A DNA stretch of 64,000 nt from Candidatus Woesearchaeota archaeon (GTDB taxonomy: Archaea > Nanobdellota > Nanobdellia > Woesearchaeales > GW2011-AR9): positions 25,721 to 89,720 of the forward strand of contig JABHQW010000005.1 of assembly GCA_018696595.1 (NCBI GenBank), read 5' to 3'. The position numbers and the translations under genes are program-made. Under the pieces are notes generated by a model. It was not told the DNA's origin. It was given only the letters and a program-made list of their open reading frames with translations, and made no database searches. Positions 367 through 18,049 of this stretch are shown here, one piece after another; position 1 is the first letter of the stretch, and the number at the start of each line of letters is the position of its first letter.

Positions 367-427
367 GATCTATATTTTTAGATCCAAAAAACCAAAACCT
401 TTATATAAGGATCTACATTTATAGATC
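367..427 (+). promoter_or_regulatory. brxA promoter: BRE/TATA (AAAACC-TTTATATA, TATA 400-407) flanked by two palindromic operators GATCTA-N6-TAGATC (367-384, 410-427)
   Basis: Read directly from the sequence. The ATG at 430 is 22 nt after the TATA box, consistent with a leaderless transcript. Confidence 0.75.
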
Positions 428-429
428 TC

Positions 430-1203
430 ATGAGTTCAAAAAATGTAACTTTGAATGTGGATTCCAGATTATATGACCAATATAGATCATATTGCAGAAA
501 AAATAGAGTATTAGTTTCTCAACAATTTGAAATTATGATGGAAGAAAAGGTTGGTTCTAGTTACAAAAAAGAAAAATCCAAATCTAAAATTATATCTAAT
601 GGAGGTATTAACAAATATGTTGGTTCTTTAACTGGCGAGCCAATTATGATTCATGAGAATAAAATTGTTGCAAACTTATTATTAAAAGACCAATCTCCTA
701 GTTCTATTAAGGAACTTGTTGTTCAAGAAAACTTATTTGGATACAAGACCACTAAAAGTATCCCAAAAAGAGTGAATTCTATCTTAAAGAGAATAGGAAA
801 TCTTGATAATTTATTGCTTAATAAGATTGTTAATGATCTAAGCGGTGATGGAAGAGTTGTAATTTTATATTCTATTTATTTAAGGGATAGATTATTTAAT
901 GAATTATTGAATGAATTGATTATAGAAAAATTTGCTATAAGGGATTTTGAATTTGAAAAGAGAATGATCCAAAAGTTCATTAGCGATAAGTCCGAAGATG
1001 AGAAAAAGATTCAAGAATTTACTAAAGAAACAAAAGATAAGTTAGGAACTGTTATGTTTAATATTTTAAAGGAAGTAGGATTAGTTGTATCACTAGATAA
1101 ATCATACAAATTACATAATTTAATGATTAGTTCTGAGTTGAGAAATTATTATGAAAATAAAGGAGAAACTAAATTTCTAAGAAGTTTGGGTGCATCATTA
1201 TGA
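430..1203 (+). CDS. brxA: BREX protein BrxA (DUF1819-like) with N-terminal ribbon-helix-helix-like extension
   Basis: KYVGSLTGEPIMIHENKIVANLL matches the usual BrxA N-terminus, here starting near residue 62. First gene of the brxABC-pglX-pglZ-brxL order. Confidence 0.85.
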   Translation: MSSKNVTLNVDSRLYDQYRSYCRKNRVLVSQQFEIMMEEKVGSSYKKEKSKSKIISNGGINKYVGSLTGEPIMIHENKIVANLLLKDQSPSSIKELVVQENLFGYKTTKSIPKRVNSILKRIGNLDNLLLNKIVNDLSGDGRVVILYSIYLRDRLFNELLNELIIEKFAIRDFEFEKRMIQKFISDKSEDEKKIQEFTKETKDKLGTVMFNILKEVGLVVSLDKSYKLHNLMISSELRNYYENKGETKFLRSLGASL

Positions 1204-1781
1204 AAATTGAAGAACGACTGGATAAGTTAAATGAAAAGTTACAGGAAACTCGTTTTTTAGAAATGAAAGGTCTTGGAAATGAAGTTCCTTTTTATATATT
1301 TGATTATCCTGCTGAAAAAGAATTGTTAATTAGAGAAACTGTTGCTAAACTTAAAGATTCTTTTTTGAAAAAAGAAATTAATATTCTAGAGATAAATTTA
1401 TATGATTTAGTATTAGGTGTTTTGTTTGAAAGAATTCCTACTGAAAAAATTATTGATTATGAAAAAAAGAAAGGATCAAACGAATTACTAAATAAGCTTC
1501 GACCTATGCTTAAAATAGATCTTGTTAAAGAAAAAATTGCTTCTCTTTTATCTAAAGAAAAATACAATATTATATTTTTAACAGGAATTGGTAATGCTTG
1601 GCCATTAATCAGATCTCATAAAGTACTAAATAATCTACAATCTGTAATTAGTAAAATTCCTTTGGTTGTTTTTTATCCAGGCCACTATACTAAATATGAT
1701 TTAAATTTATTTGGAAAGTTTAAAGATGCTAATTATTACCGTGCATTTAGATTAATAGATTATGCTGAGGAGGAGAATTAA
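1200..1781 (+). CDS. brxB: BREX protein BrxB (DUF1788)
   Basis: GLGNEVPFYIFDYP, GIGNAWPLIRSH, VVFYPG..Y and NYYRAF motifs; ATGA overlap with brxA. Confidence 0.92.
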   Translation: MKIEERLDKLNEKLQETRFLEMKGLGNEVPFYIFDYPAEKELLIRETVAKLKDSFLKKEINILEINLYDLVLGVLFERIPTEKIIDYEKKKGSNELLNKLRPMLKIDLVKEKIASLLSKEKYNIIFLTGIGNAWPLIRSHKVLNNLQSVISKIPLVVFYPGHYTKYDLNLFGKFKDANYYRAFRLIDYAEEEN

Positions 1782-1782
1782 A

Positions 1783-4700
1783 ATGGAAAATTCAATAAAA
1801 ATCAAAGAAATGTTTACAAAAGATATTACACGAGATATTAATGGAGTAATTAAAGTAGATCAAAAGGATGAAAATCATGTTTATACTGAATTAGATGAAT
1901 ATGTAATCACCCAAGAAACTAGAAAATATTTTGATGTGTTCTTTGAGAGATTTATTGAATCAATAGATAGTCCTACTGATAAAATTGGAGTATGGGTTTC
2001 AGGATTTTTTGGATCTGGTAAGTCTCATTTTATCAAAATGATTTCATATCTTCTTGAAAACAAGGAGATCAAAGGTAAAAAACCATTAGAGTTCTTTAAA
2101 GAAAAAATAAATGATCCTCAGATAACTAGTAATATTGAAAAAGCAGTAGGAAAAGGAACAAAAGATGTTATCTTGTTTAACATTGATTCTAAAGCAAACT
2201 CAGCAGGTGCAGGTGCAGAACAAATAGTTAATGTGTTTATGAAAGTATTTAATGAAAAAAGAGGTTATCTTGGTGATGTATTTTGGATTGCGGAGTTAGA
2301 AGAAGATTTAGATTATAAAGGGCTATATGATAAATTTAAAGAAGAGTTCAAAAAAATATCTGGCAACACTTGGGAATCAAAAAGAGAAGCATATGCATTT
2401 GAACAAGATGCAATCATAGAAGCACTTAATAAAATTGATTATCAAAGTAAAGAGTCTTTAGAAAGATTGTTTGAAAGTGATGGAAGTTCTTATTCATTAA
2501 GTGTAGAAAAATTTGCTAATAAAGTTAAGAAATATTGTGATAAAAAAGGAAAGGATCATCAAGTTTTGTTCTTAGTGGATGAAGTTGGACAATATATTGG
2601 AGAAAGTAGCGATTTAATGCTTAATTTACAAACAGTAGTAGAAGATTTAGGAACAAGATTACAAGGAAAGTCGTGGGTTATAGTAACATCTCAGGCAGAC
2701 ATAGATACAATTACTAAAGAACAAGTAAAAGGAGGAGATTTTTCTAAGATTCAGGGAAGGTTTGGAAAACCTTTGAACTTATCAAGTGCTAATGTTGATG
2801 AAGTTATAAAGAAAAGGCTTCTTGAAAAAACTCCAGAAATAAAGAAATCATTAGAATCTTATTATGGGGAGAAAGAAACTATTCTTAAAAATTTAATCTC
2901 TTTTACACAAGGAACTGCTGAAATGAAAAGCTATTCTTCAGCAGAAGGATTTTCTGAAGTATATCCTTTTGTTCCATACCAATTTAATTTATTGCAGAAA
3001 GTATTTGATCAAATAAGAATCACAGGATTTACAGGAAAACACCTTGCAAAAGGTGAGCGTTCTATGTTAAGTGCGTTTAAAGAATCAACTGAAAACTTAG
3101 TTGAGAATTCAATGGGTATATTAGTTCCTTTTTCAGATTTTTACAATTCAATTGAAAGTTTTTTAGATCCAATAATCAAAAGAACTATTGATCATGCAAA
3201 AGCGAATACTAGATTGAATGAGCAAGATATAAAACTATTAGAAACTTTATTCTTAATTAAACATATTAAAGAAATTAAAAGTAATGTAGATAATTTAACT
3301 GTTCTTTCAATTAACAATATTGATGAAGATAAACTTCAATTAAAGAAAAGTATTATTGAAAGTTTAGATAAGCTTAAAGCAGAAACATTAATTCATCAAT
3401 CTGATGATTGTTATTATTTTTTAACAAATGAAGAACAAGAAATTAATAAAGAAATTAAAAATCAAGATGTTGATAGACATTCAGTTAGGGATGATATTTT
3501 TAATATTGTTTATGATGATATCTGTCCTCCAAAATATGGGATATACCAATTTAATAAAATTCTTGATGATAGAACCAAACCAATTCAAAAAGCAGATCTT
3601 ACAATAAAATTTGTGACTCCTCAATATGTAGAACCAATTTATAGTGATCAACAAAACATTGGTGGAAGTAAACAATGTATCATAGATTCAACAGATACTT
3701 TGTTAATTATTTTTCCAGAAAATAGTGAGTTTGTAGAACAAATAAAAGAAAATAGAAAAATTAGCAGTTACTTAGCTCATAAGTACTCTAATAGTCAACC
3801 AGATGTAATTAAAAAAATACTCGATGAGAAAACTGGAGAAAGAGATAAATTAAAAAGTCTTGCAAAAGAAAATATTAGATCTAGATTAGTAGAAGCTGAA
3901 GTTTATATAGATAATACTAAAGTAGATCTTGATTTTAAAGATCCTGCAGACTTTATTAAAGAAGGATTAAAGATCCTAGTAGAAAATGTATATAGGAAAG
4001 CAGGACACATAACCCAGGAGTATGAAACAGAAGATGATCTTAGAAGAATTCTTCAAAACAATGATATGGAAAAATGGGGTATTGGAAATACAACTAATGC
4101 TAATGCAATAAAAGAAGTTTTAGATTATATTAAAGCAAATCATGAACAAAATGTAAAACTTTTATTGGGAGAAATAAAATCAAAATATACAAAGAAACCA
4201 TATGGTTGGAAAGAGATGACTATTGCTGGAATTCTTACTATTCTTTACATAAAAGAAGATATTACAATCAAATATCAACAAGAAGTAGTTAGTTATGATG
4301 TAGATAAAGTAACAAAATATCTGTCAAAAAGAGATTATTCTGATAAAATCCGTATTGGTCTTCGTGAAAAAGCTGGAGAACAAGAGATAAATGAAGTTAA
4401 AAAATTACTTAGAGAATTATTTGAGAAAACAGATATTCCTTCAACTGAAACTGATTTGTATAATTATACAAAAAAAGAAATTGATGAATTACAAGCTTTT
4501 TGTAGTAGTACTTTGAATGAATATTCAATAAATTCATATCCTGGAAAAGAAGCAGTTGATAAACTTGAGAAATACTTAGGTGGTTATAAATTTTTAACTG
4601 AACCTAGTTTATTACTAAAACATCTTGCAGAAACAAAAGATGAATTTAAAGAGCTTCTTGAAGAAGTTAATCCTGTTAAGAATTTCTTTAAAAGTACTCA

Positions 4701-5304
4701 GATTAAGATATTTTCTGAAGGAAGAGAAAAATTAGAAAGATTCGAAAGAAACAAAGTTTATTTGACTGTAAAAGGTAAAACTAACTTTGATGATTTGAAA
4801 AAAATAATTGATCTTCAATCACCATACAAAGAAATTAAAAATATTCCTTTACTAACAAAAGGTATAGAAACTGAATTAAGTTCTGTTGCAAAGGATAAAA
4901 AAACTAATTTGATATCTGCAGTTGATAATTCTGTTAAATTAGTACAAGAAGAATTAAACAAGCACACTAAACTTTCTGAAGACTTTAAGACAGCTATTTT
5001 TACAAGATTAAATGATCTTAAAGGAGTATTGGAAAAATCAGAAGATTGTACTCTAATAGTAAGTCAGAAAACAAGAATTGACGAAACAAAAGGAACCCTA
5101 TTTGAAGAAATAAGTCATGAAGTACAAAGAATTGCAGAAGAAGAAGGGAAGAAAGATACTAGAACAACAAAAAGCATTTCTGGGGGAGAGTTCTTTGGAT
5201 ATCCTAAAACCATTGAAAATGAAGAAGATATTAAAAAATATCTAAAAGAACTAGAAGAAAAACTTAAAGACCTAATTAAAAAGCAAAATCTGAGGGTTTA
5301 CTAA
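1783..5304 (+). CDS. brxC: BREX P-loop ATPase BrxC
   Basis: Walker A WVSGFFGSGKSH, Walker B FLVDEVGQY, ERSML motif. Start moved to ATG 1783 behind the GAGGAGGAG Shine-Dalgarno. Confidence 0.93.
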   Translation: MENSIKIKEMFTKDITRDINGVIKVDQKDENHVYTELDEYVITQETRKYFDVFFERFIESIDSPTDKIGVWVSGFFGSGKSHFIKMISYLLENKEIKGKKPLEFFKEKINDPQITSNIEKAVGKGTKDVILFNIDSKANSAGAGAEQIVNVFMKVFNEKRGYLGDVFWIAELEEDLDYKGLYDKFKEEFKKISGNTWESKREAYAFEQDAIIEALNKIDYQSKESLERLFESDGSSYSLSVEKFANKVKKYCDKKGKDHQVLFLVDEVGQYIGESSDLMLNLQTVVEDLGTRLQGKSWVIVTSQADIDTITKEQVKGGDFSKIQGRFGKPLNLSSANVDEVIKKRLLEKTPEIKKSLESYYGEKETILKNLISFTQGTAEMKSYSSAEGFSEVYPFVPYQFNLLQKVFDQIRITGFTGKHLAKGERSMLSAFKESTENLVENSMGILVPFSDFYNSIESFLDPIIKRTIDHAKANTRLNEQDIKLLETLFLIKHIKEIKSNVDNLTVLSINNIDEDKLQLKKSIIESLDKLKAETLIHQSDDCYYFLTNEEQEINKEIKNQDVDRHSVRDDIFNIVYDDICPPKYGIYQFNKILDDRTKPIQKADLTIKFVTPQYVEPIYSDQQNIGGSKQCIIDSTDTLLIIFPENSEFVEQIKENRKISSYLAHKYSNSQPDVIKKILDEKTGERDKLKSLAKENIRSRLVEAEVYIDNTKVDLDFKDPADFIKEGLKILVENVYRKAGHITQEYETEDDLRRILQNNDMEKWGIGNTTNANAIKEVLDYIKANHEQNVKLLLGEIKSKYTKKPYGWKEMTIAGILTILYIKEDITIKYQQEVVSYDVDKVTKYLSKRDYSDKIRIGLREKAGEQEINEVKKLLRELFEKTDIPSTETDLYNYTKKEIDELQAFCSSTLNEYSINSYPGKEAVDKLEKYLGGYKFLTEPSLLLKHLAETKDEFKELLEEVNPVKNFFKSTQIKIFSEGREKLERFERNKVYLTVKGKTNFDDLKKIIDLQSPYKEIKNIPLLTKGIETELSSVAKDKKTNLISAVDNSVKLVQEELNKHTKLSEDFKTAIFTRLNDLKGVLEKSEDCTLIVSQKTRIDETKGTLFEEISHEVQRIAEEEGKKDTRTTKSISGGEFFGYPKTIENEEDIKKYLKELEEKLKDLIKKQNLRVY

Positions 5305-8300
5305 TGAATAATAAGAAAACTTCATTATTTGCTGATACTTTAAGAGAGAAATTAAGAGCTGAAGTAATTGCAAAAGCTGGCAAATTAGGTTTTACATCAT
5401 CAGGTATAGCTGATGTTAAAGAATATGAAGATTCAATAATTATTAATGGGCAAGTATTTGGAACAGATCTAAAAAAACAAAGAGCAGAATTTAAAGAAGT
5501 TATTCTAAAGAAAGGATATGAAGTTGTTATTGATGAAATTACTTATACTTGGTTTAATAGATTAGTTGCTTTAAAGTTCATGAGTGAAAATGGATATGTT
5601 CCAATTAAAGTATTTAGTAGTTCTATTGAAGGAAATGCTGAACCAGATCTTCTTACAAACTGCCTTGACATAGATTTTATGCAAATAGACAAAAAAAAGT
5701 TATTAGAACTTAAAACTGCTGGAGATGACGAAGAACTCTATAAGTTCTTAATATTATCATTATGTAATCATTTGAATACAATCATGCCTTTCTTGTTTGA
5801 AAAAATAGCTGATTATACAGAACTAATGTTTCCAGAGAAATTATTACGAACAGATTCTATATTAGTGGATATTAATTCAATAATTCCAACAGAAGATTGG
5901 AAAGAAGTAGAAGTAATTGGATGGTTGTATCAAGATTATATTAACCCAAGAAAAGATGAAGTATTTGCAAAACTAAAGAAAAATGTTAAGATTTCAAAAG
6001 AAAATATTCCTGCTGCAACTCAATTGTTTACTCCTAAATGGATTGTTAAATATCTAGTTGAAAACTCAGTTGGCAGATTATGGTTAGAATCAAATCCAAA
6101 TGCTGATTTGCAAAGTAAATTAAAATATTTTATTGATCAAGAATTTGAAGTTCCTTCTGATAAAGTTGTTTCTCCTGAAGAAATAACAGTATTAGATCCT
6201 GCAATGGGATCAGGACACATGCTCGTATATGCATTTGAAGTTTTATTTAATATTTACAAATCTCAAGGATATACTGAATCTGAAATTGCACAAACAATAA
6301 TTAATGAGAACTTGTATGGCCTTGAAATAGATAACAGATCAACACAACTTGCAGGATTTGCAGTAGTAATGAAAGCAAGAGAATATGATAAGGACTTATT
6401 TTCAAAAGAAATTGATCTTAATCTAGTAGCAATACAAGAAACACCATTAGAATGTCCAATAGATGAGAAAAAATATCCAGAACTTTCACATTTATGGAAG
6501 TTTTTTTACGATGCAAAGAACTATGGATCCATCTTGAATGTAGAAGGCTATGATTTCAATAAAATAGATGAAGAATATTTATCTTTTATCAAAAGTTATT
6601 CCTTAACAGCACACTTTGATAGAGAACTAATTGCAGGAATCATTAAACAAGCAAAGATCATGAGTGCAAAGTATGATGTGGTTGTTACAAATCCCCCTTA
6701 TATGGGGACTAAGGGAATGAATATTGATTTAAGAGATTATGCAAAAAAACATTTCCCAAATACTAAATCAGATTTGATGACTATTTTTATGGAAAAAGGA
6801 CTTCTGCTGTGTAATAAACGAGGTTATATGGCCATGATTAATATACCTTCGTGGATGTTTTTATCAAGTTACACATTATTCAGAAAAGAATTACTTTTAA
6901 ATAATTATATTTCATCAATTTTGTTAAATGGAAGGGGTGTTTTTGGATCAGATTTTGGATCTGTAACATTTGTTTTTAAAAAGGAATTAATTAATAAAAA
7001 CAGTATATTTCGAAAATTATATGATAATCCTGTATCTGTAAGAAATAATGAAGTTATCAAATCAATCTTTTTAAATAAAGAGGATAAACGATATATTTTA
7101 AAACAAGAATCTTTTTTAAAAATACCAGGTAATACTTTTGCATTTTGGATTTCTGAAAAAATATTAGATCATTTTGAGAAATGTACCCCCTTAAGAAATG
7201 AATCAGTACCGAGGCAAGGTTTAGCTACAGGCGACAATGATTCTTTTTTAAGATTTTGGCAAGAAATATCTCTAAAAACAATTTCATTTAATTCAAAAGA
7301 TATTAATACCTTTCATAATTCTAATAAAATGTATGCTCCATATAGTAAAGGGGGAGAATTTAGAAAATGGTATGGCAATAATGAATTATTAATTAAATTT
7401 GATAAAAATTCATTTGAAAAATTATCAAATCAAGGAAACAATTTACCTTCAAAACAATATTATTTTAAAGAAGCACTAACTTGGTCATTTATAGGTAGAA
7501 CTGCTCTAGGTGTGAGATATAGAAAAAAAGGATCAGTTTTTGATGTACAAGGTTCTTCAATATTCCCAAAGTCTCAGATGATTTTATACATACTTGGATT
7601 TATGTGCTCTAGATTAGTTAATGAATTTATTTCTATTTTAAATCCTACTATGAGTTTCCAAGTTGGCAACATCGGAGATTTACCAATAATCTTTCCATCT
7701 GATGACGCAATAAAACAAAAGATTGATCAACTAACTCAAGAGAACATCGACATCTCAAAAGAAGAATGGGATTCTCGAGAGACTTCTTGGGATTTTAAGG
7801 TTAACGAATTAATCAAACATAAAGATGAGTCTAATAAGTTAGATGTTGCTTTTAGAAACTATTGTGAGTATTGGAAAGAGAAGTTTTTCAAGCTACACAA
7901 AAATGAGGAAGAACTAAACCAGTTATTCATAGATATTTATGATCTTAATGATGAGCTTGACAATAAAGTTCCTTTAAATGAAATTACTATTCTAAAAGAA
8001 GAGTCTGAGATTAAAGATGATCAATTAGTTTTCAAAAAAGAAGTTATTGTTAAGCAATTCTTGTCATACATTGTTGGTTGTATGTTTGGAAGATATAATC
8101 CTGAAAAAGAAGGGTTAATACTTGCTAATCAAGGAGAAACAATAAGTGATTTTCCAATACAATCTCAGTTTAAACCAGATGATGACAATCTCATCCCAGT
8201 AACAGATAAAGATTATTTCCCTGATGATATTGTTGGAAAAGTAAAAGAGTTCCTAAAAACATATTTCGGAGCAAACAATATTACTGAAAATTTAGATTTT

Positions 8301-8729
8301 ATAGCATCAGGACTCAAGGGATCTGGATCATCTGAAGAAAAGATTAGAAGATACTTCCTAAAAGACTTCTTTAATGATCATAAAAAGACATACAAGAAAA
8401 AACCTATTTACTGGTTGTTTACATCTGGAAAAAATCAAGGTTTTAACACATTAATCTACATGCACAGATACAATAAAGAATTATTGGCAAAAATGAGAAT
8501 GGATTATTTACATGAATTACAAGGTAAGATAGAAGCAAATATTAGCACAATTAGAGATGATGATGCAAGATCACAAAGAGAAAAAGAAGATTTGTCAAGA
8601 CAATATGAAGAGATGAAGAAGTATGATGAATTATTGAATCATAAAGCTTCAGAATATATCGAGATTGATCTAGATGATGGCGTAACAGTTAATCATGCTA
8701 AATTCAAAGATCTTGTGGAGAGTATTTAA
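5304..8729 (+). CDS. pglX: BREX adenine-specific DNA methyltransferase PglX/BrxX
   Basis: IPAATQLFTPKWIVKY, motif I LDPAMGSGHML, motif IV VVTNPPY, C-terminal KKPIYW and IDLDDGVTVNHAKF. Confidence 0.95.
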   Translation: MNNKKTSLFADTLREKLRAEVIAKAGKLGFTSSGIADVKEYEDSIIINGQVFGTDLKKQRAEFKEVILKKGYEVVIDEITYTWFNRLVALKFMSENGYVPIKVFSSSIEGNAEPDLLTNCLDIDFMQIDKKKLLELKTAGDDEELYKFLILSLCNHLNTIMPFLFEKIADYTELMFPEKLLRTDSILVDINSIIPTEDWKEVEVIGWLYQDYINPRKDEVFAKLKKNVKISKENIPAATQLFTPKWIVKYLVENSVGRLWLESNPNADLQSKLKYFIDQEFEVPSDKVVSPEEITVLDPAMGSGHMLVYAFEVLFNIYKSQGYTESEIAQTIINENLYGLEIDNRSTQLAGFAVVMKAREYDKDLFSKEIDLNLVAIQETPLECPIDEKKYPELSHLWKFFYDAKNYGSILNVEGYDFNKIDEEYLSFIKSYSLTAHFDRELIAGIIKQAKIMSAKYDVVVTNPPYMGTKGMNIDLRDYAKKHFPNTKSDLMTIFMEKGLLLCNKRGYMAMINIPSWMFLSSYTLFRKELLLNNYISSILLNGRGVFGSDFGSVTFVFKKELINKNSIFRKLYDNPVSVRNNEVIKSIFLNKEDKRYILKQESFLKIPGNTFAFWISEKILDHFEKCTPLRNESVPRQGLATGDNDSFLRFWQEISLKTISFNSKDINTFHNSNKMYAPYSKGGEFRKWYGNNELLIKFDKNSFEKLSNQGNNLPSKQYYFKEALTWSFIGRTALGVRYRKKGSVFDVQGSSIFPKSQMILYILGFMCSRLVNEFISILNPTMSFQVGNIGDLPIIFPSDDAIKQKIDQLTQENIDISKEEWDSRETSWDFKVNELIKHKDESNKLDVAFRNYCEYWKEKFFKLHKNEEELNQLFIDIYDLNDELDNKVPLNEITILKEESEIKDDQLVFKKEVIVKQFLSYIVGCMFGRYNPEKEGLILANQGETISDFPIQSQFKPDDDNLIPVTDKDYFPDDIVGKVKEFLKTYFGANNITENLDFIASGLKGSGSSEEKIRRYFLKDFFNDHKKTYKKKPIYWLFTSGKNQGFNTLIYMHRYNKELLAKMRMDYLHELQGKIEANISTIRDDDARSQREKEDLSRQYEEMKKYDELLNHKASEYIEIDLDDGVTVNHAKFKDLVESI

Positions 8730-8730
8730 G

Positions 8731-11304
8731 ATGGCAAATGTAGAAAAAACAATAAAAGGATTACTATCTAAATTTAACGCCAGAGAATCTTATGAAACTA
8801 GAAAAATTGTTTTTTGGTATGATACAGATAAAACAGCAAAAGAAGAAGATATCAAAGAAATTCAATCAGAACTAGAAAAACAAGATATTAAAATAGTAAT
8901 CTTAAAAAATAACTTTTTTGAAATAAAAAAGATTATAGAACATGACAATCCAGAATCTAACTTCCTAGTTTATTCTCAAGAAAACGAAAAGAAATATGAA
9001 GAAAATTGGTTATTAGATGTTCAATTATACTCAACAAGGTTTGAAAATAGCCGAGTTGCAGATGTAAAAAGTATTTTTAATATAGATGGATCCAAATTGG
9101 ATAAATTTATTGATGCACATTATAACTTTTTTCAAAGCAAAACAAGAGTTGAGCTATTAATACAACTCTATCATCCCTCATGGGATGAAAGTGATTTTGA
9201 AAAAGGATTATTAGCAGTTATAACAAGAACAAAAGTTCTTGATACAAATAGTATTGTTAGGAATTTATTAATAAAGTCATTAGAAGAACAAGAAAATGAA
9301 TTTTGGTTGGATATTGAAAAGTATAACATTTCTTCTTCGTTTTGGGATTTAGTAAAAAATACTTATGGATATAAATCAGATTATCCAAAGCTATCAAAAT
9401 TATTTTATAGTTTTATAGTAACACATATTGAATATCATACAAAAACAATCCTTAAAGGATATAATTCATATATTAATGAAAGAAAAAATGATTGTGAAGT
9501 ATTTTTAAACAGTTGGATTAGAGATTCTGAAAATCTAAAAGCATATCAAGAATATGCATCTCATTTTGAAGAATCAAATTTTGATGATTTAAGATCTCAA
9601 TTTGATAAAAAGACTAATAAGGATATCTGTGAGGCTGAAGCATTGGAATTCTTTGATAAAGCTTTGATCATAAACATTTCAAATCAGTTGTCTAATAATG
9701 GTCAGAATTATTCATCATATAAAGAATTAATAGAACATAGAAAAGGAAAGGTTTGGTATAAAAATTATAAGCCAGTATATCAAGCATTAGATAGTGCTAT
9801 TTCTTTATTTGAATTTATTTCAGGAGAAAAGATTGATCCTAATTCATTATCTAAATTATATTCCTTATACAAAACTAAATATCATAAAGCAGATTATTAT
9901 TATAGAAAATTCTATGAGCATTTTGATCAATGTAAAAGTGACATACTTAAGAAGAAATTGCGTTCTGAAGTAGAAAAGATATATCATAACAAATTTTTAG
10001 ATAGATTTATTGAAATTTGGACAAATGCAGTAACTTCTGAAAATAAAAAGGATTGGAGTATTGGATCTAATTCAACACAAAATGAGTTTTATGATTTGTA
10101 TGTTAAAAAGTATGCATCTAAAAAAAATAAAGTAGTAATTATAATTTCTGATGCTTTGAGATATGAAGTTGCAAATGAATTAAAAAATAAATTAAATGTC
10201 CAATTAAGGGGGTCAACAGAGATTAAAGACTTAGTTGGAGTAGTTCCTTCTTGTACTAAAATTGGTATGGCTTCATTATTACCTCACAAAACTTTAAACT
10301 ATAATCAAGGAACAGTATCCTGCGATGGTATTAACACTCAAGGAATCAAAAATAGAGAAAAAATACTACAAAACAAGAATAATGATTCAATAGCAATTAA
10401 TTACAAAGAATTAATTAGACTAACACGACAACAAACAAGAGATTTATTTAGAGGAATGAATGTAGTATACATTTATCATAATAAGATTGATGATGTTGGT
10501 GATAATGCTAATTCAGAAAATGAAGTATTTAGTGCATGTAAGAATGCAATTGATGAAATAAAAACTTTAATCAATGATTTAACTAATTCAATTTCATTAG
10601 CAAATATAATTGTAACTGCAGATCATGGGTTTATATATAAGAGAGAAACATTAAAAGATGTAGATAAAGTTGAATTGAACAGATTTAATAGAACAAATAT
10701 TGTTGATTCTTCAAAAAGATATGTTGTTACTAATGAAAATATCGATATGGATAATGTTCATAAATTCTCGTTAGATTATGCAGAAGGAGATCTTTTAGTA
10801 TATGTACCTAAAGGTAATTTGAGATTTAAAACTCAAGGTGCTGGAGTTAACTTTGTTCATGGAGGAATAACTCCTCAAGAAATAACAATTCCTGTCTTAG
10901 TGTATAAACATACTAGATCTGACAAAGATTTAGATAAAAAGAATGTTAAACATGGATATGTGAATGTAACTTTATTAAATACTTCTAGAAAAATAACCAC
11001 TAACATAACTCCAATTAACTTGTATCAAACTGAGAAAGTAACTGAAAAATTAAAACCAATTAAATGCAAAATTTCTTTGATTGATCCAGATACTAAAGAA
11101 AAAGTTAGTGATGAAAAAACATTAATTATTGATAGCGGTTCAGAAAATCCAGATAGAAGAAAATACAATACAAATCTTACACTTAAATCATCTGTTGAAA
11201 ATAAAAAACATCTATTAAGGATATTAAAAGTTGAAGAGGAAAAAGAAGAATTAATTCAATTTGATATAGATTTAGCTATGACAAATGATTTTGATGATTT
11301 TTAG
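8731..11304 (+). CDS. pglZ: BREX phosphatase/nuclease PglZ
   Basis: RKIVFWYD, IISDALRYE, TADHGF and FVHGG motifs. Start set at ATG 8731, just after the pglX stop. Confidence 0.93.
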   Translation: MANVEKTIKGLLSKFNARESYETRKIVFWYDTDKTAKEEDIKEIQSELEKQDIKIVILKNNFFEIKKIIEHDNPESNFLVYSQENEKKYEENWLLDVQLYSTRFENSRVADVKSIFNIDGSKLDKFIDAHYNFFQSKTRVELLIQLYHPSWDESDFEKGLLAVITRTKVLDTNSIVRNLLIKSLEEQENEFWLDIEKYNISSSFWDLVKNTYGYKSDYPKLSKLFYSFIVTHIEYHTKTILKGYNSYINERKNDCEVFLNSWIRDSENLKAYQEYASHFEESNFDDLRSQFDKKTNKDICEAEALEFFDKALIINISNQLSNNGQNYSSYKELIEHRKGKVWYKNYKPVYQALDSAISLFEFISGEKIDPNSLSKLYSLYKTKYHKADYYYRKFYEHFDQCKSDILKKKLRSEVEKIYHNKFLDRFIEIWTNAVTSENKKDWSIGSNSTQNEFYDLYVKKYASKKNKVVIIISDALRYEVANELKNKLNVQLRGSTEIKDLVGVVPSCTKIGMASLLPHKTLNYNQGTVSCDGINTQGIKNREKILQNKNNDSIAINYKELIRLTRQQTRDLFRGMNVVYIYHNKIDDVGDNANSENEVFSACKNAIDEIKTLINDLTNSISLANIIVTADHGFIYKRETLKDVDKVELNRFNRTNIVDSSKRYVVTNENIDMDNVHKFSLDYAEGDLLVYVPKGNLRFKTQGAGVNFVHGGITPQEITIPVLVYKHTRSDKDLDKKNVKHGYVNVTLLNTSRKITTNITPINLYQTEKVTEKLKPIKCKISLIDPDTKEKVSDEKTLIIDSGSENPDRRKYNTNLTLKSSVENKKHLLRILKVEEEKEELIQFDIDLAMTNDFDDF

Positions 11305-11316
11305 GAGGGTAAAAAA

Positions 11317-13347
11317 ATGGTCGAACAAGATACTGATATAAAATTAAACGAAGTATTTGCAGGAAAAGTAGTGAGGAAAGATTTAACTAAAACTTTAGGT
11401 AAAAGTGAAAATGTTCCAATATATGTAATAGAGTATCTTTTAGGGCAATATTGTGCAACTGATGACGATAATATCATAAAAGAAGGATTACAAAAAGTTA
11501 AAAATATTTTAGCAGATAACTTTGTTCGACCAGATGAAGCTGAAAAAGTAAAATCAAATATCAGGGAAAAAGGATACTATACTGTCATTGATAAAGTCAC
11601 AGTTAAATTAAATGAAAGACGAGATGTTTATGAAGCAGAATTTTCAAATTTGGGATTAAAGGGTGTTGAAGTAGAACCAAATGATGTTAAAAGATTTGAA
11701 AAACTTCTTTGCGGAGGTATTTGGTGCATTCTTAAAATAAGCTATTCAACTGAAGAATCTAAAAATCCATTTATTATTGAAAGTTTAAAACCAATTCAAA
11801 TTGCTAGTATGAAAATTCAGGAGTTTATAGATGCGAGGGAAAAATTCCAGACTGAAGAGTGGATTGATGTTATTTTAAGATCTATAGGGATGGAACCAAC
11901 TCAATTAGAAGAGAAAACTAAATGGCATATCCTGGAAAGACTTGTACCTTTAATAGAGAATAATTATAATTTAGTAGAACTTGGCCCAAGAAGTACAGGA
12001 AAATCTCATGTTTACAAAGAAATTTCTGCCAATTCTATTTTAATGTCTGGTGGTCAAACTACAGTTGCAAATCTATTCTATAATATGTCCACTAGAAAAA
12101 TAGGTCTTGTGGGTTATTGGGATGTAGTTGCATTTGATGAAGTTGCAGGAATGAACTTTAAAGATAAAGATGGAATTCAAATCATGAAAGATTATATGGC
12201 ATCAGGATCATTTGCAAGAGGAAAAGAGGAAAAGAATGCTAATGCTTCAATAGTATTTGTAGGTAATATTAATCAAAGCGTTTCATCATTGTTAAAAACT
12301 GCACATCTATTTCAACCATTTCCAGAATCTATGAATAATGATAGTGCTTTCTTTGATAGGATTCATTACTATTTACCTGGATGGGAAGTTCCAAAATTTA
12401 AACCAGAACATTTCACAGATAGATATGGATTTATTGTTGATTATTTTGCAGAATTTCTAAGGGAAATGAGAAAAAGAAATTTTAGTGATCAAATTAGTAG
12501 CTATTTCAAACTTGGTAATAACCTAAATCAAAGAGATGTAATTGCAGTTACAAAAACATTCTCTGGATTAATGAAATTATTGTATCCTAATCAAAAAGCA
12601 ACTAAAGAAGAAATACAACAAGTTCTTGAATATTCACTTGAAGGGAGAAGAAGAGTGAAAGAACAACTAAAGAGAATGGGAGGGATGGAATTCTTTGATG
12701 TTAATTTTTCATATATAGATAATGAAACTTTAGAAGAACATTTTGTAAGTGTGCCTGAATCAGGAGGAAACAAATTAATTCCTGAAGGAGTTATGAATCC
12801 AGGACATATATTCACAGTAGGATATGCTAATGGTACAAAAATAGGTGTCTATAAACTTGAATTACAAGTAGTTAATGGAACAGGAAAATTTGAAAAATCT
12901 GGTTTAAACTCTAATGCCAAAGCAAAAGAAGCCGCAAATACTGCAATAAATTATTTTAAAGCAAATGCTAAAAACATTAGCCAAATGATCAAGTATAAAG
13001 AAAAAGATTATTTCTTACACATACAAGATCAGTATGGTGTTGGTCTAACTTCAGACATTGCTCTTGCATACTTCATTAGTTTATGCTCTGGATCATTAAA
13101 TAAGCCAGTAGATGAACAATTAGTGGTGTTAGGTACTATGACTATAGGTGGATCTATTAATTCAATAGAGAACCTAGCAGATCAATTACAAATATGTTTG
13201 GAAGCAGGAGCAAAGAAAATATTATTGCCTATGTCTTCTGCAGGAAAAATGTCTTCAGTACCTCCGGAATTATTTAGTAAATTTCAAATTGCATTTTATT
13301 CAGACCCAATAGATGCAGTTTACAAAGCATTGGGGTTTAATCATTAG
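11317..13347 (+). CDS. brxL: BREX Lon-like AAA+ protein BrxL
   Basis: VPIYVIEYLLGQYC, Walker A ELGPRSTGKSH, VAFDEV, C-terminal Lon-like domain (GTMTIGGS, GAKKILLP). Confidence 0.95.
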   Translation: MVEQDTDIKLNEVFAGKVVRKDLTKTLGKSENVPIYVIEYLLGQYCATDDDNIIKEGLQKVKNILADNFVRPDEAEKVKSNIREKGYYTVIDKVTVKLNERRDVYEAEFSNLGLKGVEVEPNDVKRFEKLLCGGIWCILKISYSTEESKNPFIIESLKPIQIASMKIQEFIDAREKFQTEEWIDVILRSIGMEPTQLEEKTKWHILERLVPLIENNYNLVELGPRSTGKSHVYKEISANSILMSGGQTTVANLFYNMSTRKIGLVGYWDVVAFDEVAGMNFKDKDGIQIMKDYMASGSFARGKEEKNANASIVFVGNINQSVSSLLKTAHLFQPFPESMNNDSAFFDRIHYYLPGWEVPKFKPEHFTDRYGFIVDYFAEFLREMRKRNFSDQISSYFKLGNNLNQRDVIAVTKTFSGLMKLLYPNQKATKEEIQQVLEYSLEGRRRVKEQLKRMGGMEFFDVNFSYIDNETLEEHFVSVPESGGNKLIPEGVMNPGHIFTVGYANGTKIGVYKLELQVVNGTGKFEKSGLNSNAKAKEAANTAINYFKANAKNISQMIKYKEKDYFLHIQDQYGVGLTSDIALAYFISLCSGSLNKPVDEQLVVLGTMTIGGSINSIENLADQLQICLEAGAKKILLPMSSAGKMSSVPPELFSKFQIAFYSDPIDAVYKALGFNH

Positions 13348-13355
13348 ATGTTAAA

Positions 13356-16300
13356 ATGACAAACGAAATAAAAACTCAAGTGGATAAAGCATGTGTGATA
13401 CTTGCAGGTGCAGGAACTGGTAAATCTTACACTATTAAACAAAAAGCCAAATATCTCGTTGAAGAATTAAAGTATAATCCTGAAGAAATCCTTTGTCTTA
13501 CTTTTTCAAATGAAGCAACTAATTCACTAAAGAAAGGAATGCAAGAAGAGATTAATTCAACAGAAGATGTTGATGTTAAAACATTTCATGCATTTTGTGC
13601 AGATATATTAAGAGAAGAAGGTCATTTAGTTGGCGTTCAAGAAGGTTTTGAGATATTGCTTCCTGATGATGCTAAGATTTTTATGCATAAATATTTAGAA
13701 ATTAAACCTTATTGGTCAAACAGATACATAAACACAATATCTACTGCAAAAGATTTTGGTATTAGTATAGATGATATTAAAGGACATTTGAATAAATTAA
13801 AAGAGAACTTGTCTGGAGATAATCTTGAAGAACAAACAACTGAAATGAAAGTTGAATTAAAAACTCTTTATCTTGAAGAAAACACTAAAGAACTTAGGGA
13901 GCGAAAAAAAGAAATACAACAATTCTTGAAGGGATTTGATAATTATTCTAGATTAAAAGAATTTATCAAAGCATGGGATGATTTTGACAATTTAAAAAAA
14001 GAAAAAAATTATCTTGATTTTTCAGATCTTAATTTTTTTACATTAAAATTATTTAGAGAATTTGGTGCAAAAAAAGATAAATACAAATATGTATTTATAG
14101 ACGAATTTCAAGATACAAATAAATTACAATTTGAGTTAATAGAATTCATTGCAGGACAAAATATCACAGTAGTTGGAGATCCAAATCAATCAATTTATGG
14201 GTTTAGAGGATCGTATAAAGAAAGTTTTGAACATTTTAAGAAAGTTTTCAAAGTAGAAGAAGTTCATAAACTTGATAAAAGTTGGAGATCACCAAATCAA
14301 ATTCTTAATGCATCTCATGAATTAATAAAAAATAATTATGAAAATCCTGAAGATTGTATTAACATTCAAAATGCTAATGGGGATGAAGGCGATAAAGTTA
14401 ATGTAATTGAACTTGTAAATAAATATGAAGAAGCTAGATATATTGCTGATTTAGTGCAGAAAAAGATAGATGAAGGAATTTCTAAAGATGAAATTTGTAT
14501 TCTTCATAGAACTCATAAACAAGCTGAAGAAATAAAAAAAGCATTAGAACTTAAGAACATACAATTTATTTCAGCAGGAAAAATAGATCTACTTCAAAAA
14601 AGAGAGATAAGGACAGTAATAGGATATTTAAGCATATTATCAAATTTAATTAATAGATCTGGTACTGGGGAACAGTCATGGTGGGATTTATTTCATTTTC
14701 AAAATACATTAAGTCCAGAAGACTCAGTTAAAATTGGAAGATATCTTAAAAAACATAACAAACATGAAATGCCTATAGAAGATCAAATAGGGATCGATGA
14801 ATTATTATTAAATTCTATCTCAGAGTTGAACCTATCGAATGAAGCAAAAGTAATTATAAAAAGAGTAGTTGATCTGTTAAGAGAAATACTTAAATCTTCA
14901 AACAAGCCATTACCAGAGATAATCCTTGATATATTTGAAATTTCTGGATTGAATAGGGCTTTTAGTCATCAAAGAAATATTCAGAACATTGAAAGTTTAA
15001 TGAATTTAAAAAAATTCTATGAAATTGCGAAGAATTATTATAATTTACATGAAAAAAATCTAACTGAATTTATTAAGTATCTAGAAATGGTTGACACTTT
15101 AGGAGTTAGTATAGATGCATCAAAAATATTACACATTGATGCTGTTAGATTAATGACGATTCATGCGTCAAAAGGATTGGAATTTGATGTAATTATAACT
15201 TGTAATCTTGCAAAAGATAGATTCCCTGTTGGTAGGACAAGGAATGAACCATTAATTCCTAAAGAATTGTTACCAGATTTCAAGGCACAAATAGATGATT
15301 GGAAAGAAGAAGGTCTTAATGAAAAGGAAATTGAAAAGAAAATAAAAGATTATGATAAGTCTATTCAATTATTTGAAGAAAGAAGACTTTGTTATGTAGC
15401 TTGGACTAGGGCTAAGAAGGAATTACATTTAACTTATGCAAGAAGTTATAATGATGAACCAGATTCAACGACAAAATCAATTTTTTTAGACGAAATAAAA
15501 TATACTGAAACTTGTGAATTTGTAAAAGATGATGAAGAAAAATCATTATTGATTGCACCAAATTCTAATTATGAAATTTACAAATCTATGTTAAAAAATC
15601 AATTAATGAACTCTTTAGATACTGAAGGCGTAGATGATTTGAAGAAAAGATTAATCACTTATTTGGTTTGTAGGGATAAAAAATTAATTGAGGATGATTC
15701 ATCAGATAAAGCTGAATTACAAAGGCATTTAGATAAATGTAATGAAGATGTATCTGGAATTAAATTTAATTCTTCAGATTTTACATTTAGTCCAACAGCA
15801 TTAATTGAATATTCGGAATGTCCAAAAAAGTTTGAACTTAGCAAGATATATCAAATGCCTCAAAGAGGAGATTTTGAATCAGACGGTGGAGGGGCATCAC
15901 TTGGATCTTTTATTCATAAAGTCTTAGAATTAGGAGTAGATCAAAAAACAGACAAATTGGAAGGATATATTGAATTAGCAAAGAAATTAGTTAAAGATAA
16001 TGAATGGGAATCAATAAATATTAATGATGCAATTCCTTTAATTGAAATATTCTGGGAGAGAAATAAAAATAAAATAAATGAAAACTCCAAAACTGAATTA
16101 AAACTGCCTGTAGAAATCGAAGGTTTTAGATTTTTTGGCCTTGCAGATAGAGTAGATACATTGGATGATGGAACAGTTGAAATTGTGGATTATAAAACAA
16201 ATAAAGATGCGATACCTCCTAAAAAAAGGGCATTGCAATTAGGTTTTTACGCATTAGCTCTTCAATCAAAAGGATTCAAAGTTTCAAAATTAACATTAGA

Positions 16301-16532
16301 TATGTTAAAACTTGATAAACCAATTGAAATGAAAATTGAAGGTGATGAAGTTATTGCAGTATTGGGTTGTAATAAATCAGCCAATTTCAAATTATCAGAA
16401 TTAAAAGCAGAAATAGTTGAATTAACAAAAAGTATAAAGAACGATTATGAACATTCGTTTGATTGTACTGATGATGAAAATTCATGTAGATTTTGTGGGT
16501 ATAAATTTTATTGCCCTAAGTGGGATGAATAA
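13356..16532 (+). CDS. UvrD/PcrA-type SF1A helicase fused to a C-terminal PD-(D/E)XK nuclease with four-Cys Fe-S staple (AddA/AdnB-like architecture)
   Basis: AGAGTGKS, IDEFQDTN, VGDPNQSIYGFRG, MTIHASKGLEF, EERRLCYVAWTRA. Nuclease motifs GLADRVD, IVDYKT, QLGFYA. Cysteines in ECPKK and CRFCGYKFYCP. Confidence 0.9.
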   Translation: MTNEIKTQVDKACVILAGAGTGKSYTIKQKAKYLVEELKYNPEEILCLTFSNEATNSLKKGMQEEINSTEDVDVKTFHAFCADILREEGHLVGVQEGFEILLPDDAKIFMHKYLEIKPYWSNRYINTISTAKDFGISIDDIKGHLNKLKENLSGDNLEEQTTEMKVELKTLYLEENTKELRERKKEIQQFLKGFDNYSRLKEFIKAWDDFDNLKKEKNYLDFSDLNFFTLKLFREFGAKKDKYKYVFIDEFQDTNKLQFELIEFIAGQNITVVGDPNQSIYGFRGSYKESFEHFKKVFKVEEVHKLDKSWRSPNQILNASHELIKNNYENPEDCINIQNANGDEGDKVNVIELVNKYEEARYIADLVQKKIDEGISKDEICILHRTHKQAEEIKKALELKNIQFISAGKIDLLQKREIRTVIGYLSILSNLINRSGTGEQSWWDLFHFQNTLSPEDSVKIGRYLKKHNKHEMPIEDQIGIDELLLNSISELNLSNEAKVIIKRVVDLLREILKSSNKPLPEIILDIFEISGLNRAFSHQRNIQNIESLMNLKKFYEIAKNYYNLHEKNLTEFIKYLEMVDTLGVSIDASKILHIDAVRLMTIHASKGLEFDVIITCNLAKDRFPVGRTRNEPLIPKELLPDFKAQIDDWKEEGLNEKEIEKKIKDYDKSIQLFEERRLCYVAWTRAKKELHLTYARSYNDEPDSTTKSIFLDEIKYTETCEFVKDDEEKSLLIAPNSNYEIYKSMLKNQLMNSLDTEGVDDLKKRLITYLVCRDKKLIEDDSSDKAELQRHLDKCNEDVSGIKFNSSDFTFSPTALIEYSECPKKFELSKIYQMPQRGDFESDGGGASLGSFIHKVLELGVDQKTDKLEGYIELAKKLVKDNEWESININDAIPLIEIFWERNKNKINENSKTELKLPVEIEGFRFFGLADRVDTLDDGTVEIVDYKTNKDAIPPKKRALQLGFYALALQSKGFKVSKLTLDMLKLDKPIEMKIEGDEVIAVLGCNKSANFKLSELKAEIVELTKSIKNDYEHSFDCTDDENSCRFCGYKFYCPKWDE

Positions 16533-17704: not shown

Positions 17705-18049
17705 TCAGACTTTTATCACGATGGGGCTTTTTGGAATTTCATCCAGATTGATTATTTGCCAACCTCTACGCTTCCAATGTATGACTAATCTTGATTTTAC
17801 TGGAGGATTTGCTTTAGCTGTATCAATTAATTTCTGAAGTTGCTCTTTCATCTTTGTATCAACAGTCAGTTTTTCTTGTGAAGTGCTTTTCACTTCATCC
17901 AGATAGACTTGACCATCTTCAACAGAGATTACATCACAAACACCGAACTGTCCACAGCCACTTCCAGCAATCCTTTGTGCAAAACCAGAGCAATTCACAA
18001 TCTTAACATATTTTCTTTCAGAGTCCTTGATATGTTTTTGTGAAATCAT
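17705..18049 (-). CDS. Hjc-like (archaeal Holliday junction resolvase family) PD-(D/E)XK nuclease
   Basis: SERKYVKI..GFAQRIAGSG..CDVISVEDGQVYLDEVKST follows the Hjc pattern E-R..R.AGSG..D..EVKST. ATGA overlap with the integrase. Confidence 0.7.
   Translation of the reverse strand: MISQKHIKDSERKYVKIVNCSGFAQRIAGSGCGQFGVCDVISVEDGQVYLDEVKSTSQEKLTVDTKMKEQLQKLIDTAKANPPVKSRLVIHWKRRGWQIINLDEIPKSPIVIKV

Follow-up and report, generated by a model that had tools for sequence, protein, structure and literature searches.

An N-terminal ribbon-helix-helix-like extension of BrxA and twin palindromes at the promoter of an archaeal type 1 BREX operon

The BREX operon and its extended BrxA

The DNA considered here, hereafter the window, is a stretch of 64,000 nucleotides from a Candidatus Woesearchaeota archaeon (assembly GCA_018696595.1, contig JABHQW010000005.1, positions 25,721 to 89,720), whose genome (G000) comprises 1.19 Mb (1,186,834 bases) with 32.3% G+C and is 97% complete. 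The window starts with about 430 bases of AT-rich non-coding DNA, followed by seven co-oriented and close-packed genes, the first six of which belong to a bacteriophage exclusion (BREX) system: brxA (430-1203, 257 amino acids), brxB (1200-1781), brxC (1762-5304, 1252 bits), pglX (5304-8729, 1295 bits), pglZ (8695-11304) and brxL (11317-13347, 1094 bits), each recognised by both Pfam and PADLOC models. Adjacent genes overlap or abut, all of them on the plus strand, and the operon (430-13347) is a complete type 1 BREX with its six core genes in order. At its head, BrxA carries an additional N-terminal domain resembling the ribbon-helix-helix (RHH) proteins, and two palindromes flank the TATA box of the brxA promoter, a combination suggesting that a core BREX subunit may repress its own operon.

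The Pfam BrxA model (PF08849, DUF1819) matches residues 62-243 of the protein over profile positions 2-182 of 184 (E = 7.6e-37; 127.3 bits, with a cut-off of 23), and the matches of all nine PADLOC BrxA models start at residue 61-63, with an E value of 5.5e-39 over residues 62-253. BrxA of the window carries a 61-residue N-terminal extension, in agreement with the roughly 60 extra residues noticed in a first-pass annotation of this DNA. Canonical BrxA, as described, has 199 amino acids (PMC9240713). On the plus strand, the RHH-like domain (residues 1-42; 430-555), delimited by AlphaFold2 (AF2) modelling and by homology to stand-alone proteins, is followed by a Lys/Ser-rich linker of about 19 residues (43-61; 556-612), which varies in sequence and length among fused homologues and has a predicted local distance difference test score (pLDDT) below 50 in the full-length model, and by the canonical BrxA domain as delimited by Pfam and PADLOC (residues 62-257 plus the stop codon; 613-1203). 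The same architecture recurs in 13 fused database proteins of 253-292 amino acids, which align over their full length at 60-76% identity to the query and share, within the first 37 residues, the invariant positions M1, N5, T7, L8, L14, Y15, C22, S30, Q32, E34 and M37. The nearest unfused BrxA proteins (198-218 amino acids; 45-56% identity) begin just ahead of the conserved YxGSLTGEP motif, and in a close relative (G380) BrxA residues 1-81 are found at a contig end. At the level of sequence, the N-terminal fusion is both genuine and conserved, and a second copy of its domain was not found elsewhere in the window's genome.

The promoter geometry bears on where this protein begins. A BRE-like element (transcription factor B recognition element), AAAACC (394-399, plus strand; read by eye), precedes the TATA box TTTATATA (400-407, plus strand), which begins 30 nt ahead of the ATG at 430; the first-pass annotation had correctly seen a TATA box between the palindromes, setting it at 401-408 instead of 400-407. 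The starts of the octamer TTTAWAWA were tallied upstream of every ATG-started open reading frame (ORF) of at least 120 amino acids in the genome (n = 1009), and they accumulate at -30 (75 ORFs), -31 (39) and -29 (21), which amounts to 135 of the 1009 at -31 to -29, over a background of 0-5 per position elsewhere, with a shoulder of 17 each at -32 and -33 and almost none closer to the ATG. The brxA TATA box, starting at -30, occupies the modal position of the genome. Since the octamer peaks at -30 and archaeal TATA boxes lie about 26 nt upstream of the transcription start, leaderless mRNAs starting at the ATG appear to be the dominant mode for the genes of this archaeon. As the TATA box of brxA keeps this modal leaderless distance, its true start codon is, by this promoter logic, ATG 430, and the BrxA domain would be made only as a fusion, because the reading frame offers no in-frame ATG near residue 62, ahead of the domain. 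The alternative that the start has been mis-called, translation beginning downstream (near KYVG, in the terms of the first-pass annotation) and the first 60 codons being an open but untranslated leader, could draw on one database entry, P0014 (221 amino acids), which begins at MEEKVG. However, besides the TATA distance and the lack of an in-frame ATG near residue 62, the N-terminal domain is kept at the protein level in the 13 homologues, invariant residues included, and it is homologous to independent proteins of 45 amino acids, so that a downstream start is already close to refuted.

Twin palindromes around the TATA box

Two exact 18-bp palindromes with the same arms, GATCTA and TAGATC, flank the TATA box in precisely the positions given by the first-pass annotation. 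The distal one (op1, a putative operator with centre TATTTT; GATCTATATTTTTAGATC; 367-384) lies at -63 to -46 from the ATG and widens to a 20-bp palindrome, GGATC..GATCC, at 366-385, and the proximal one (op2, also a putative operator, with centre CATTTA; GATCTACATTTATAGATC; 410-427) lies at -20 to -3, between the TATA box and the start site, ending 2 nt short of the ATG; start to start, 43 bp separate them. The pattern GATCTA-N6-TAGATC has two matches in the entire genome of 1,186,834 bases, both at the brxA promoter, and searching the window with one mismatch or with the degenerate form GAKCNA-N6-TNGMTC returned the same two sites only, where shuffled sequences lead to an expectation of 0.19. 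A perfect 6-N6-6 inverted repeat between TATA box and ATG occurs in a single one of the 157 leaderless-type promoters of the genome, that of brxA. A transcript beginning at the ATG would lack op2, and an RNA hairpin is therefore no alternative for it. A terminator scan flagged op1 as a hairpin on the minus strand, a candidate that was discarded: there is no converging gene, the run of A follows on the plus strand, and op2 shares its shape.

The sequence upstream of brxA was readable in five distinct fused loci, namely the window and loci L004 to L007 (L001 and L009 have the same sequence as L004); scans for such loci yielded one in genome contigs, four in metagenomes and none in viral contigs. 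Their proteins are 93% (L004) or 62-64% (L005, L006 and L007) identical to BrxA of the window. The DNA between and around the promoter elements differs among the five loci, and so do the upstream genes, which encode a GmrSD-type protein and a Cas4-like nuclease in L007, a PD-(D/E)XK nuclease in L006, and unknown products in L005 and in the window; the entire upstream intergenic space comprises about 50 nt in L005 and about 83 nt in L006. Downstream, all fused loci run on into brxB, and L006 and L007 reach brxC as well. In all five cases there is an 18-bp palindrome at -61 to -64, a TATA box at about -30, and a second 18-bp palindrome at -19 or -20 that ends 1-2 nt before the ATG, the two palindromes starting 42-44 bp (about four helical turns) apart and their outer arms agreeing in 4-6 of six positions. 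The co-occurrence of the palindrome with RHH-BrxA fusions, a point raised by the first-pass annotation, holds in every readable fused locus. Which palindrome of the pair is the better one, op1 or op2, varies by locus. In a set of 63 loci, the 52 others lack the degenerate operator pattern, and outer arms of the GATC/GAGC kind are confined to the fused subfamily.

The presence of GATC in the half-sites led the first-pass annotation to suggest a methylation-sensitive control, in which methylation of GATC would alter repressor binding and tie expression to the methylation state. GATC is indeed retained in at least one of the two outer arms of eight of the ten operators. On the other hand, op1 of L005 (630-647) and op2 of L007 (2981-2998) read GAGCCA..TAGCTC, with both arms changed together, so that GAGC/GCTC replaces GATC symmetrically in two of the ten operators; one further half-site reads GGATT, and 3 of the 20 half-site positions expected to carry GATC count as not conserved. 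Neither was a D12-class (Dam-class) methyltransferase found in the 97%-complete genome, where an N6_N4 match is sub-threshold only, and the observed/expected ratio of GATC in this genome (0.77) is like those of CATG (0.76) and GCGC (0.72), with no special depletion. BREX PglX enzymes are reported to methylate asymmetric 6-bp sites. Methylation-sensitive repression is therefore not supported and seems highly improbable. Because the left-arm T and the right-arm A of GATC changed together in two operators, the comparison points to dyad symmetry, rather than GATC itself, as the object of selection. The partner operators in the L005 and L007 promoters stay of the GATC type. In the predicted DNA-reading strand, the proteins of these two loci have Q4 and R9, and those of the GATC-only loci have K4; the combination of Q4/R9 with GAGC arms may reflect a specificity shift, in numbers too small to judge.

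The N-terminal domain and its stand-alone relatives

The AF2 model of the N-terminal domain, computed on a 32-sequence alignment (pLDDT 77), has an extended segment, KNVTLNV, a helix at residues 12-24, a six-residue turn (25-30) and a second helix at 31-41, and this order of elements, strand-helix A-turn-helix B within about 45 residues, fits the layout of the RHH class (MetJ/Arc/CopG). DSSP calls no strand in the monomer model, as expected if the strand pairs only in the dimer. The strand, KN(V/I)TLxV, alternates as in Arc and CopG, and helix B opens with S-(R/Q)-Q after a turn containing G or N. Searches with 32 family members gave, in Pfam, RepB-RCR_reg (17 members), DUF6364 (14; 3.4e-5), DUF6290, RelB, CcdA and CopG_antitoxin; in NCBIfam, RelB_DinJ (16) and aCcr1 (7; best 0.002); and in PHROGs, Arc-like repressor families (20, 16 and 11; best 1.5e-5), all of which we take to be families recognised, or labelled, as RHH-type. 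No helix-turn-helix family was matched, and the consistent matches were all RHH-type. In hhalign, the strand and helix A fall in register with those of 23 Pfam-defined RHH_1 domains from related genomes (P 3e-4, probability 39%), and in the ESM Atlas the top named clusters among the matches listed were all RHH-type (RHH_1, RHH_3, Arc, ParG, NikA-like; scores 0.88-0.89), which is a lead only. When compared with PDB sequences, the family profile gave nothing significant; the entry 2kel, from an archaeal virus and presumably the RHH regulator SvtR, came up with an E value of 0.35. The best PDB-sequence matches, fragments of picornavirus 3A, were set aside as a non-significant similarity over a 14-residue stretch, and a sub-threshold Pox_D5 match of residues 1-65, also present in 18 family members, was treated as a helical chance match. 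The full-length AF2 model, with 13 sequences, was poor (pLDDT 51). The N-terminal domain is very probably of the RHH type, as the first-pass annotation had proposed; the profile matches of its relatives and the predicted order of elements agree with that proposal, whereas the structure search brought no confirmation.

When the whole BrxA protein was searched against 401 genomes of the phylum in six-frame translation, its BrxA part was matched in the window's genome alone, whereas residues 1-45 were matched in 91 genomes, a set that includes three unpublished ones (G242, G243 and G359). In the 28 loci compared (L010-L037, of which L021 alone comes from G242 and carries no conclusion by itself), the stand-alone homologues are independent genes of 42-54 amino acids, 38-57% identical to the BrxA N-terminus (E 1e-10 to 1e-15), and T7, Y15, C22, S30 and E34 are invariant across the fused and free forms. 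A profile search recovered at least 1126 clusters of stand-alone proteins, none of them with a Pfam annotation, and no PADLOC (2.0) model matches the family; public records assign close homologues of the small proteins of the window's genome to Woesearchaeota or Nanoarchaeota. Of the best 150 representatives (at 50% identity), just three are long proteins, namely the BrxA fusion (257 amino acids), a 561-amino-acid protein with seven short repeated matches and a 160-amino-acid protein with the domain at its C-terminus.

In 25 of the 28 loci, a gene of at least 50 amino acids on the same strand starts between -39 and +139 nt from the stop codon of the small gene, and 23 of these 25 downstream genes overlap the stop codon or start at most 10 nt after it. 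Restriction-modification genes, as assigned by Pfam, account for 21 of the 25, all within that overlapping or closely following group: N6_N4 methyltransferases, type III Mod, type I HsdM, HsdR/ResIII helicase, type IIG enzymes and a PLD nuclease-SNF2 protein. The other four encode a Bro-N protein, a RhuM protein and two products without a match. From this arrangement, the stand-alone family would be a dedicated leader gene of DNA-modification defence operons.

The promoters of the free genes also resemble that of brxA. When 7-mers of the 70-nt upstream regions of the 28 free genes were compared with flanking DNA, the most enriched were ACATTTG (46-fold), CATTTGT (34-fold), ATTTGTA (31-fold; 10 of the 28 loci) and TACATTT (30-fold), values that overstate independence because the box is AT-rich and TATA-like and the loci are related; the four words outrank most TATA words in the enrichment list. 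In the window's genome, with no free copy of the domain, ATTTGTA is found upstream of 1.3% of ORFs. The TATA-anchored consensus of the stand-alone promoters is AATATTTATAAATATGTGTAAATATTTATA, in which the TATA-associated box is followed, at a distance of 18 nt, by a second A(C/T)ATTT(G/A)TA box that falls between TATA and the expected start. The box at the promoters of the stand-alone family is TACATTTGTA, and the operator centres of the five fused BREX loci are TACATTTATA, TACATTTTTA, CACATTTATA and TACAAATGTA. The op2 centre of the window also lies 18 nt after the TATA-associated box, which is the geometry of the stand-alone promoters. Promoters of the stand-alone genes seem to carry, therefore, the same core box as the BREX operators.

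These data suggest an origin for the fusion. The domain probably derives from a small RHH gene heading a restriction-modification operon and joined to brxA by stop-codon loss: since the stop codon of the free genes usually overlaps or abuts the start of the next gene, one lost stop codon could yield the fusion. The Pfam model detected the BrxA family in one of the 401 genomes sampled for the phylum, and a search with the BrxA part found no match in 400 further genomes of the order; these small-genome archaea very seldom possess type 1 BREX. Because BrxA is so rare in the phylum and the domain occurs in 91 of 401 genomes, the BREX operon would have been acquired from outside and then joined to a regulator module common in the phylum.

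The neighbourhood of the operon is in keeping with mobility. Downstream of the BREX genes, a tyrosine recombinase gene (18046-19341, minus strand) is followed by housekeeping genes (MsrB, prolyl-tRNA synthetase), and for this reason the BREX genes seem to sit on an integrated, mobile-looking element. The seventh gene of the co-oriented series, located 9 nt past brxL (13356-16532, plus strand; Pfam and PADLOC), encodes a UvrD-type helicase fused to a PD-(D/E)XK nuclease (1058 amino acids) and may be an accessory of the island or of this BREX lineage. In L006, a PD-(D/E)XK nuclease gene terminates 83 nt upstream of brxA. The 446-nt AT-rich spacer upstream of brxA in the window's genome is preceded by two genes (G000:C8 24651-26774; L008 2-1054) that match no Pfam family significantly, and the C-terminus of one of their products has a sub-threshold match to Linker_histone, of winged-helix type. 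The spacer itself contains no Rfam family and no tRNA among those searched, and neither marks the ends of the island. The L007 metagenome contig is a defence island, where a GmrSD-type type IV restriction gene with DUF5655 and a DUF2779/Cas4-like nuclease gene (3-2924) lie upstream of the fused BREX operon.

BrxA as a candidate repressor of its own operon

To our knowledge, the only BREX control described so far is bacterial and relies on a WYL repressor encoded by its own gene, with none described for archaea. The described regulator is the WYL protein BrxR (PMC9122589, PMC9122601), and the first-pass annotation had seen no such separate regulator (BrxR/CapW) in the window, a statement that can be extended to the whole genome, 97% complete, in which the WYL domain (PF13280) was not found. 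No other copy of the N-terminal domain, no other operator and no WYL regulator were found in this genome. The preferred reading is that RHH-BrxA autorepresses its own BREX operon, with a probability of about 0.65. The fusion, the start codon, the conserved twin palindromes and the missing WYL protein all fit the first-pass proposal of a core subunit repressing its own operon, in which DNA binding and repression themselves are predictions from sequence.

According to this model, the BREX operon would be transcribed as a leaderless mRNA from one archaeal promoter, with the start at or next to ATG 430, and the resulting BrxA would bear its N-terminal RHH domain on a flexible linker. RHH domains dimerise, and two RHH dimers would occupy each 18-20-bp palindrome. 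Occupancy of op2, between TATA box and start site, would then block the recruitment of RNA polymerase, a mode of action of several archaeal repressors, and op1, located four helical turns further upstream and facing the same side of the DNA, would aid the binding to op2 through cooperativity. In this way, the amount of BrxA would hold down the expression of all six BREX genes, resulting in a self-limiting operon.

Several points weigh against this model. The organism is uncultivated. The domain of the window itself matches no curated RHH model, which makes the RHH assignment transitive, and the matches of the other members to RHH profiles (E 1e-5 to 1e-2) are all below the curated cut-offs. 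Foldseek searches (PDB, BFVD) and VIA-align wide searches with the 48-residue monomer model gave nothing above noise, as would be expected of half of an intertwined dimer, and these null results say nothing either way. The operator centre is AT-rich and TATA-like, and the sharing of the motif may partly reflect the AT-rich composition of promoters. The co-occurrence of fusion and palindromes rests on five distinct promoters, all from fused loci, and in L005 and L007 one protein would have to accept GATC- and GAGC-type arms alike.

Another explanation would be that the RHH domain is not a regulator, and that it dimerises BrxA or tethers the BREX complex to DNA, the palindromes serving as binding sites for the helix-turn-helix lobes of BrxA or for a different host factor. 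Canonical BrxA is a DNA-binding monomer (PMC9240713), for which a forced dimerisation could matter, and a 2026 survey of BREX domains, which reports C-terminal winged-helix-turn-helix (wHTH) additions to BrxA and describes no N-terminal RHH, raises a possible regulatory role of BrxA itself (PMC12839542). However, the palindromes are unique in the genome and stand exactly on the promoter, their centre corresponds to the motif at the promoters of stand-alone RHH genes, which have no BrxA part, and a further copy of the domain was not found in this genome, all of which makes this explanation improbable.

Autorepression by RHH-BrxA can be compared with several known systems. Like BrxR/CapW, found in BREX and in cyclic-oligonucleotide-based anti-phage signalling systems (CBASS; PMC9122589, PMC9122601), it would involve a repressor at the head of the BREX locus that binds, here as a prediction, inverted repeats in the promoter region; BrxR is nevertheless a separate bacterial gene with a wHTH-WYL architecture, whereas the protein discussed here is RHH-like, fused to BrxA and associated with an archaeal TATA promoter. 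MtsR, a putative Arc/CopG-type repressor encoded in some operons of the BREX-related MANTIS systems (bioRxiv 10.64898/2026.09.23.753747), indicates that RHH regulators beside BREX-related systems are not without precedent, but it is a separate gene, bacterial and uncharacterised. No paper pairing BrxA with a ribbon-helix-helix domain was found in the searchable literature. Fusions of this sort exist elsewhere. SsoII-type methyltransferases carry an N-terminal DNA-binding region that represses their own gene, a similar union of a regulator domain with a core defence component, with a helix-turn-helix on a methyltransferase in place of an RHH-like domain on BrxA. In PutA and in the RHH antitoxins RelB, CcdA and ParD, an N-terminal RHH domain represses its own operon and the C-terminal part does another job, so that the state of this second part governs transcription; these C-terminal functions are unrelated to BrxA, and the family members match the RelB and CcdA profiles weakly. 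SvtR and aCcr1, small RHH proteins of archaea or their viruses that repress by promoter binding, are the nearest solved or curated sequence matches, marginal ones (E 0.35 for 2kel; 7 of 32 members, best 0.002, for aCcr1), and neither is known to be linked to defence operons.

The closest parallel in role is offered by the C proteins, which exert feedback control in type II restriction-modification systems. Their behaviour is outlined in the introduction of PMC12255303. They share with RHH-BrxA the position of a small dimeric DNA-binding protein first in the operon, two palindromic operators and a feedback on a methylation-based defence (binding and dimerisation being here predictions), and with the stand-alone homologues the place of a small first gene of a restriction-modification operon with a conserved box at its own promoter. 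C proteins, in contrast, are of Xre-type helix-turn-helix fold, mostly bacterial, and usually precede a nuclease gene, whereas the stand-alone family is RHH-like and mostly precedes a methyltransferase or hsdM gene. The stand-alone family may thus be C-protein-like in role, while not a member of the C proteins.

This likeness raises the main variant to plain autorepression, a two-step switch in which RHH-BrxA would bind first to the distal site and stimulate transcription, and later fill the proximal site and repress, giving a timed burst on entry into a cell, capped afterwards. Two operators of unequal quality do flank the promoter, the island carries a tyrosine recombinase and looks mobile, and the stand-alone homologues head restriction-modification operons as C genes do. 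But the loci show no consistent pattern of a strong distal and a weak proximal operator, no activation surface is seen in the sequence, and activation by upstream binding is less common in archaea, so that such a switch seems unlikely.

Under the autorepression model, this locus becomes a minimal and easily tested case, with a 45-residue domain, two 18-bp sites and one leaderless promoter. If true, a core subunit would itself set the level of the operon, and BrxA, whose role is still unclear, would be tied to a defined DNA site. A BREX operon so rare in the phylum may have become adapted to archaeal transcription through its union with a regulator module that is widespread there. In a broader and more tentative version, possible and no more, the N-terminal domain would represent an undescribed family, frequent in Woesearchaeota-type genomes, of RHH-type controllers at the head of type I, II and III restriction-modification operons that was captured by the BrxA fusion, in such a way that promoter occupancy would report the BrxA not engaged in BREX complexes or on foreign DNA; the feedback would then be stoichiometric, and repression would perhaps be released during infection. 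A result of wider bearing may be the stand-alone RHH-like family that heads restriction-modification operons in DPANN archaea; if this broader version is true, the family would be the archaeal RHH counterpart of the helix-turn-helix C proteins.

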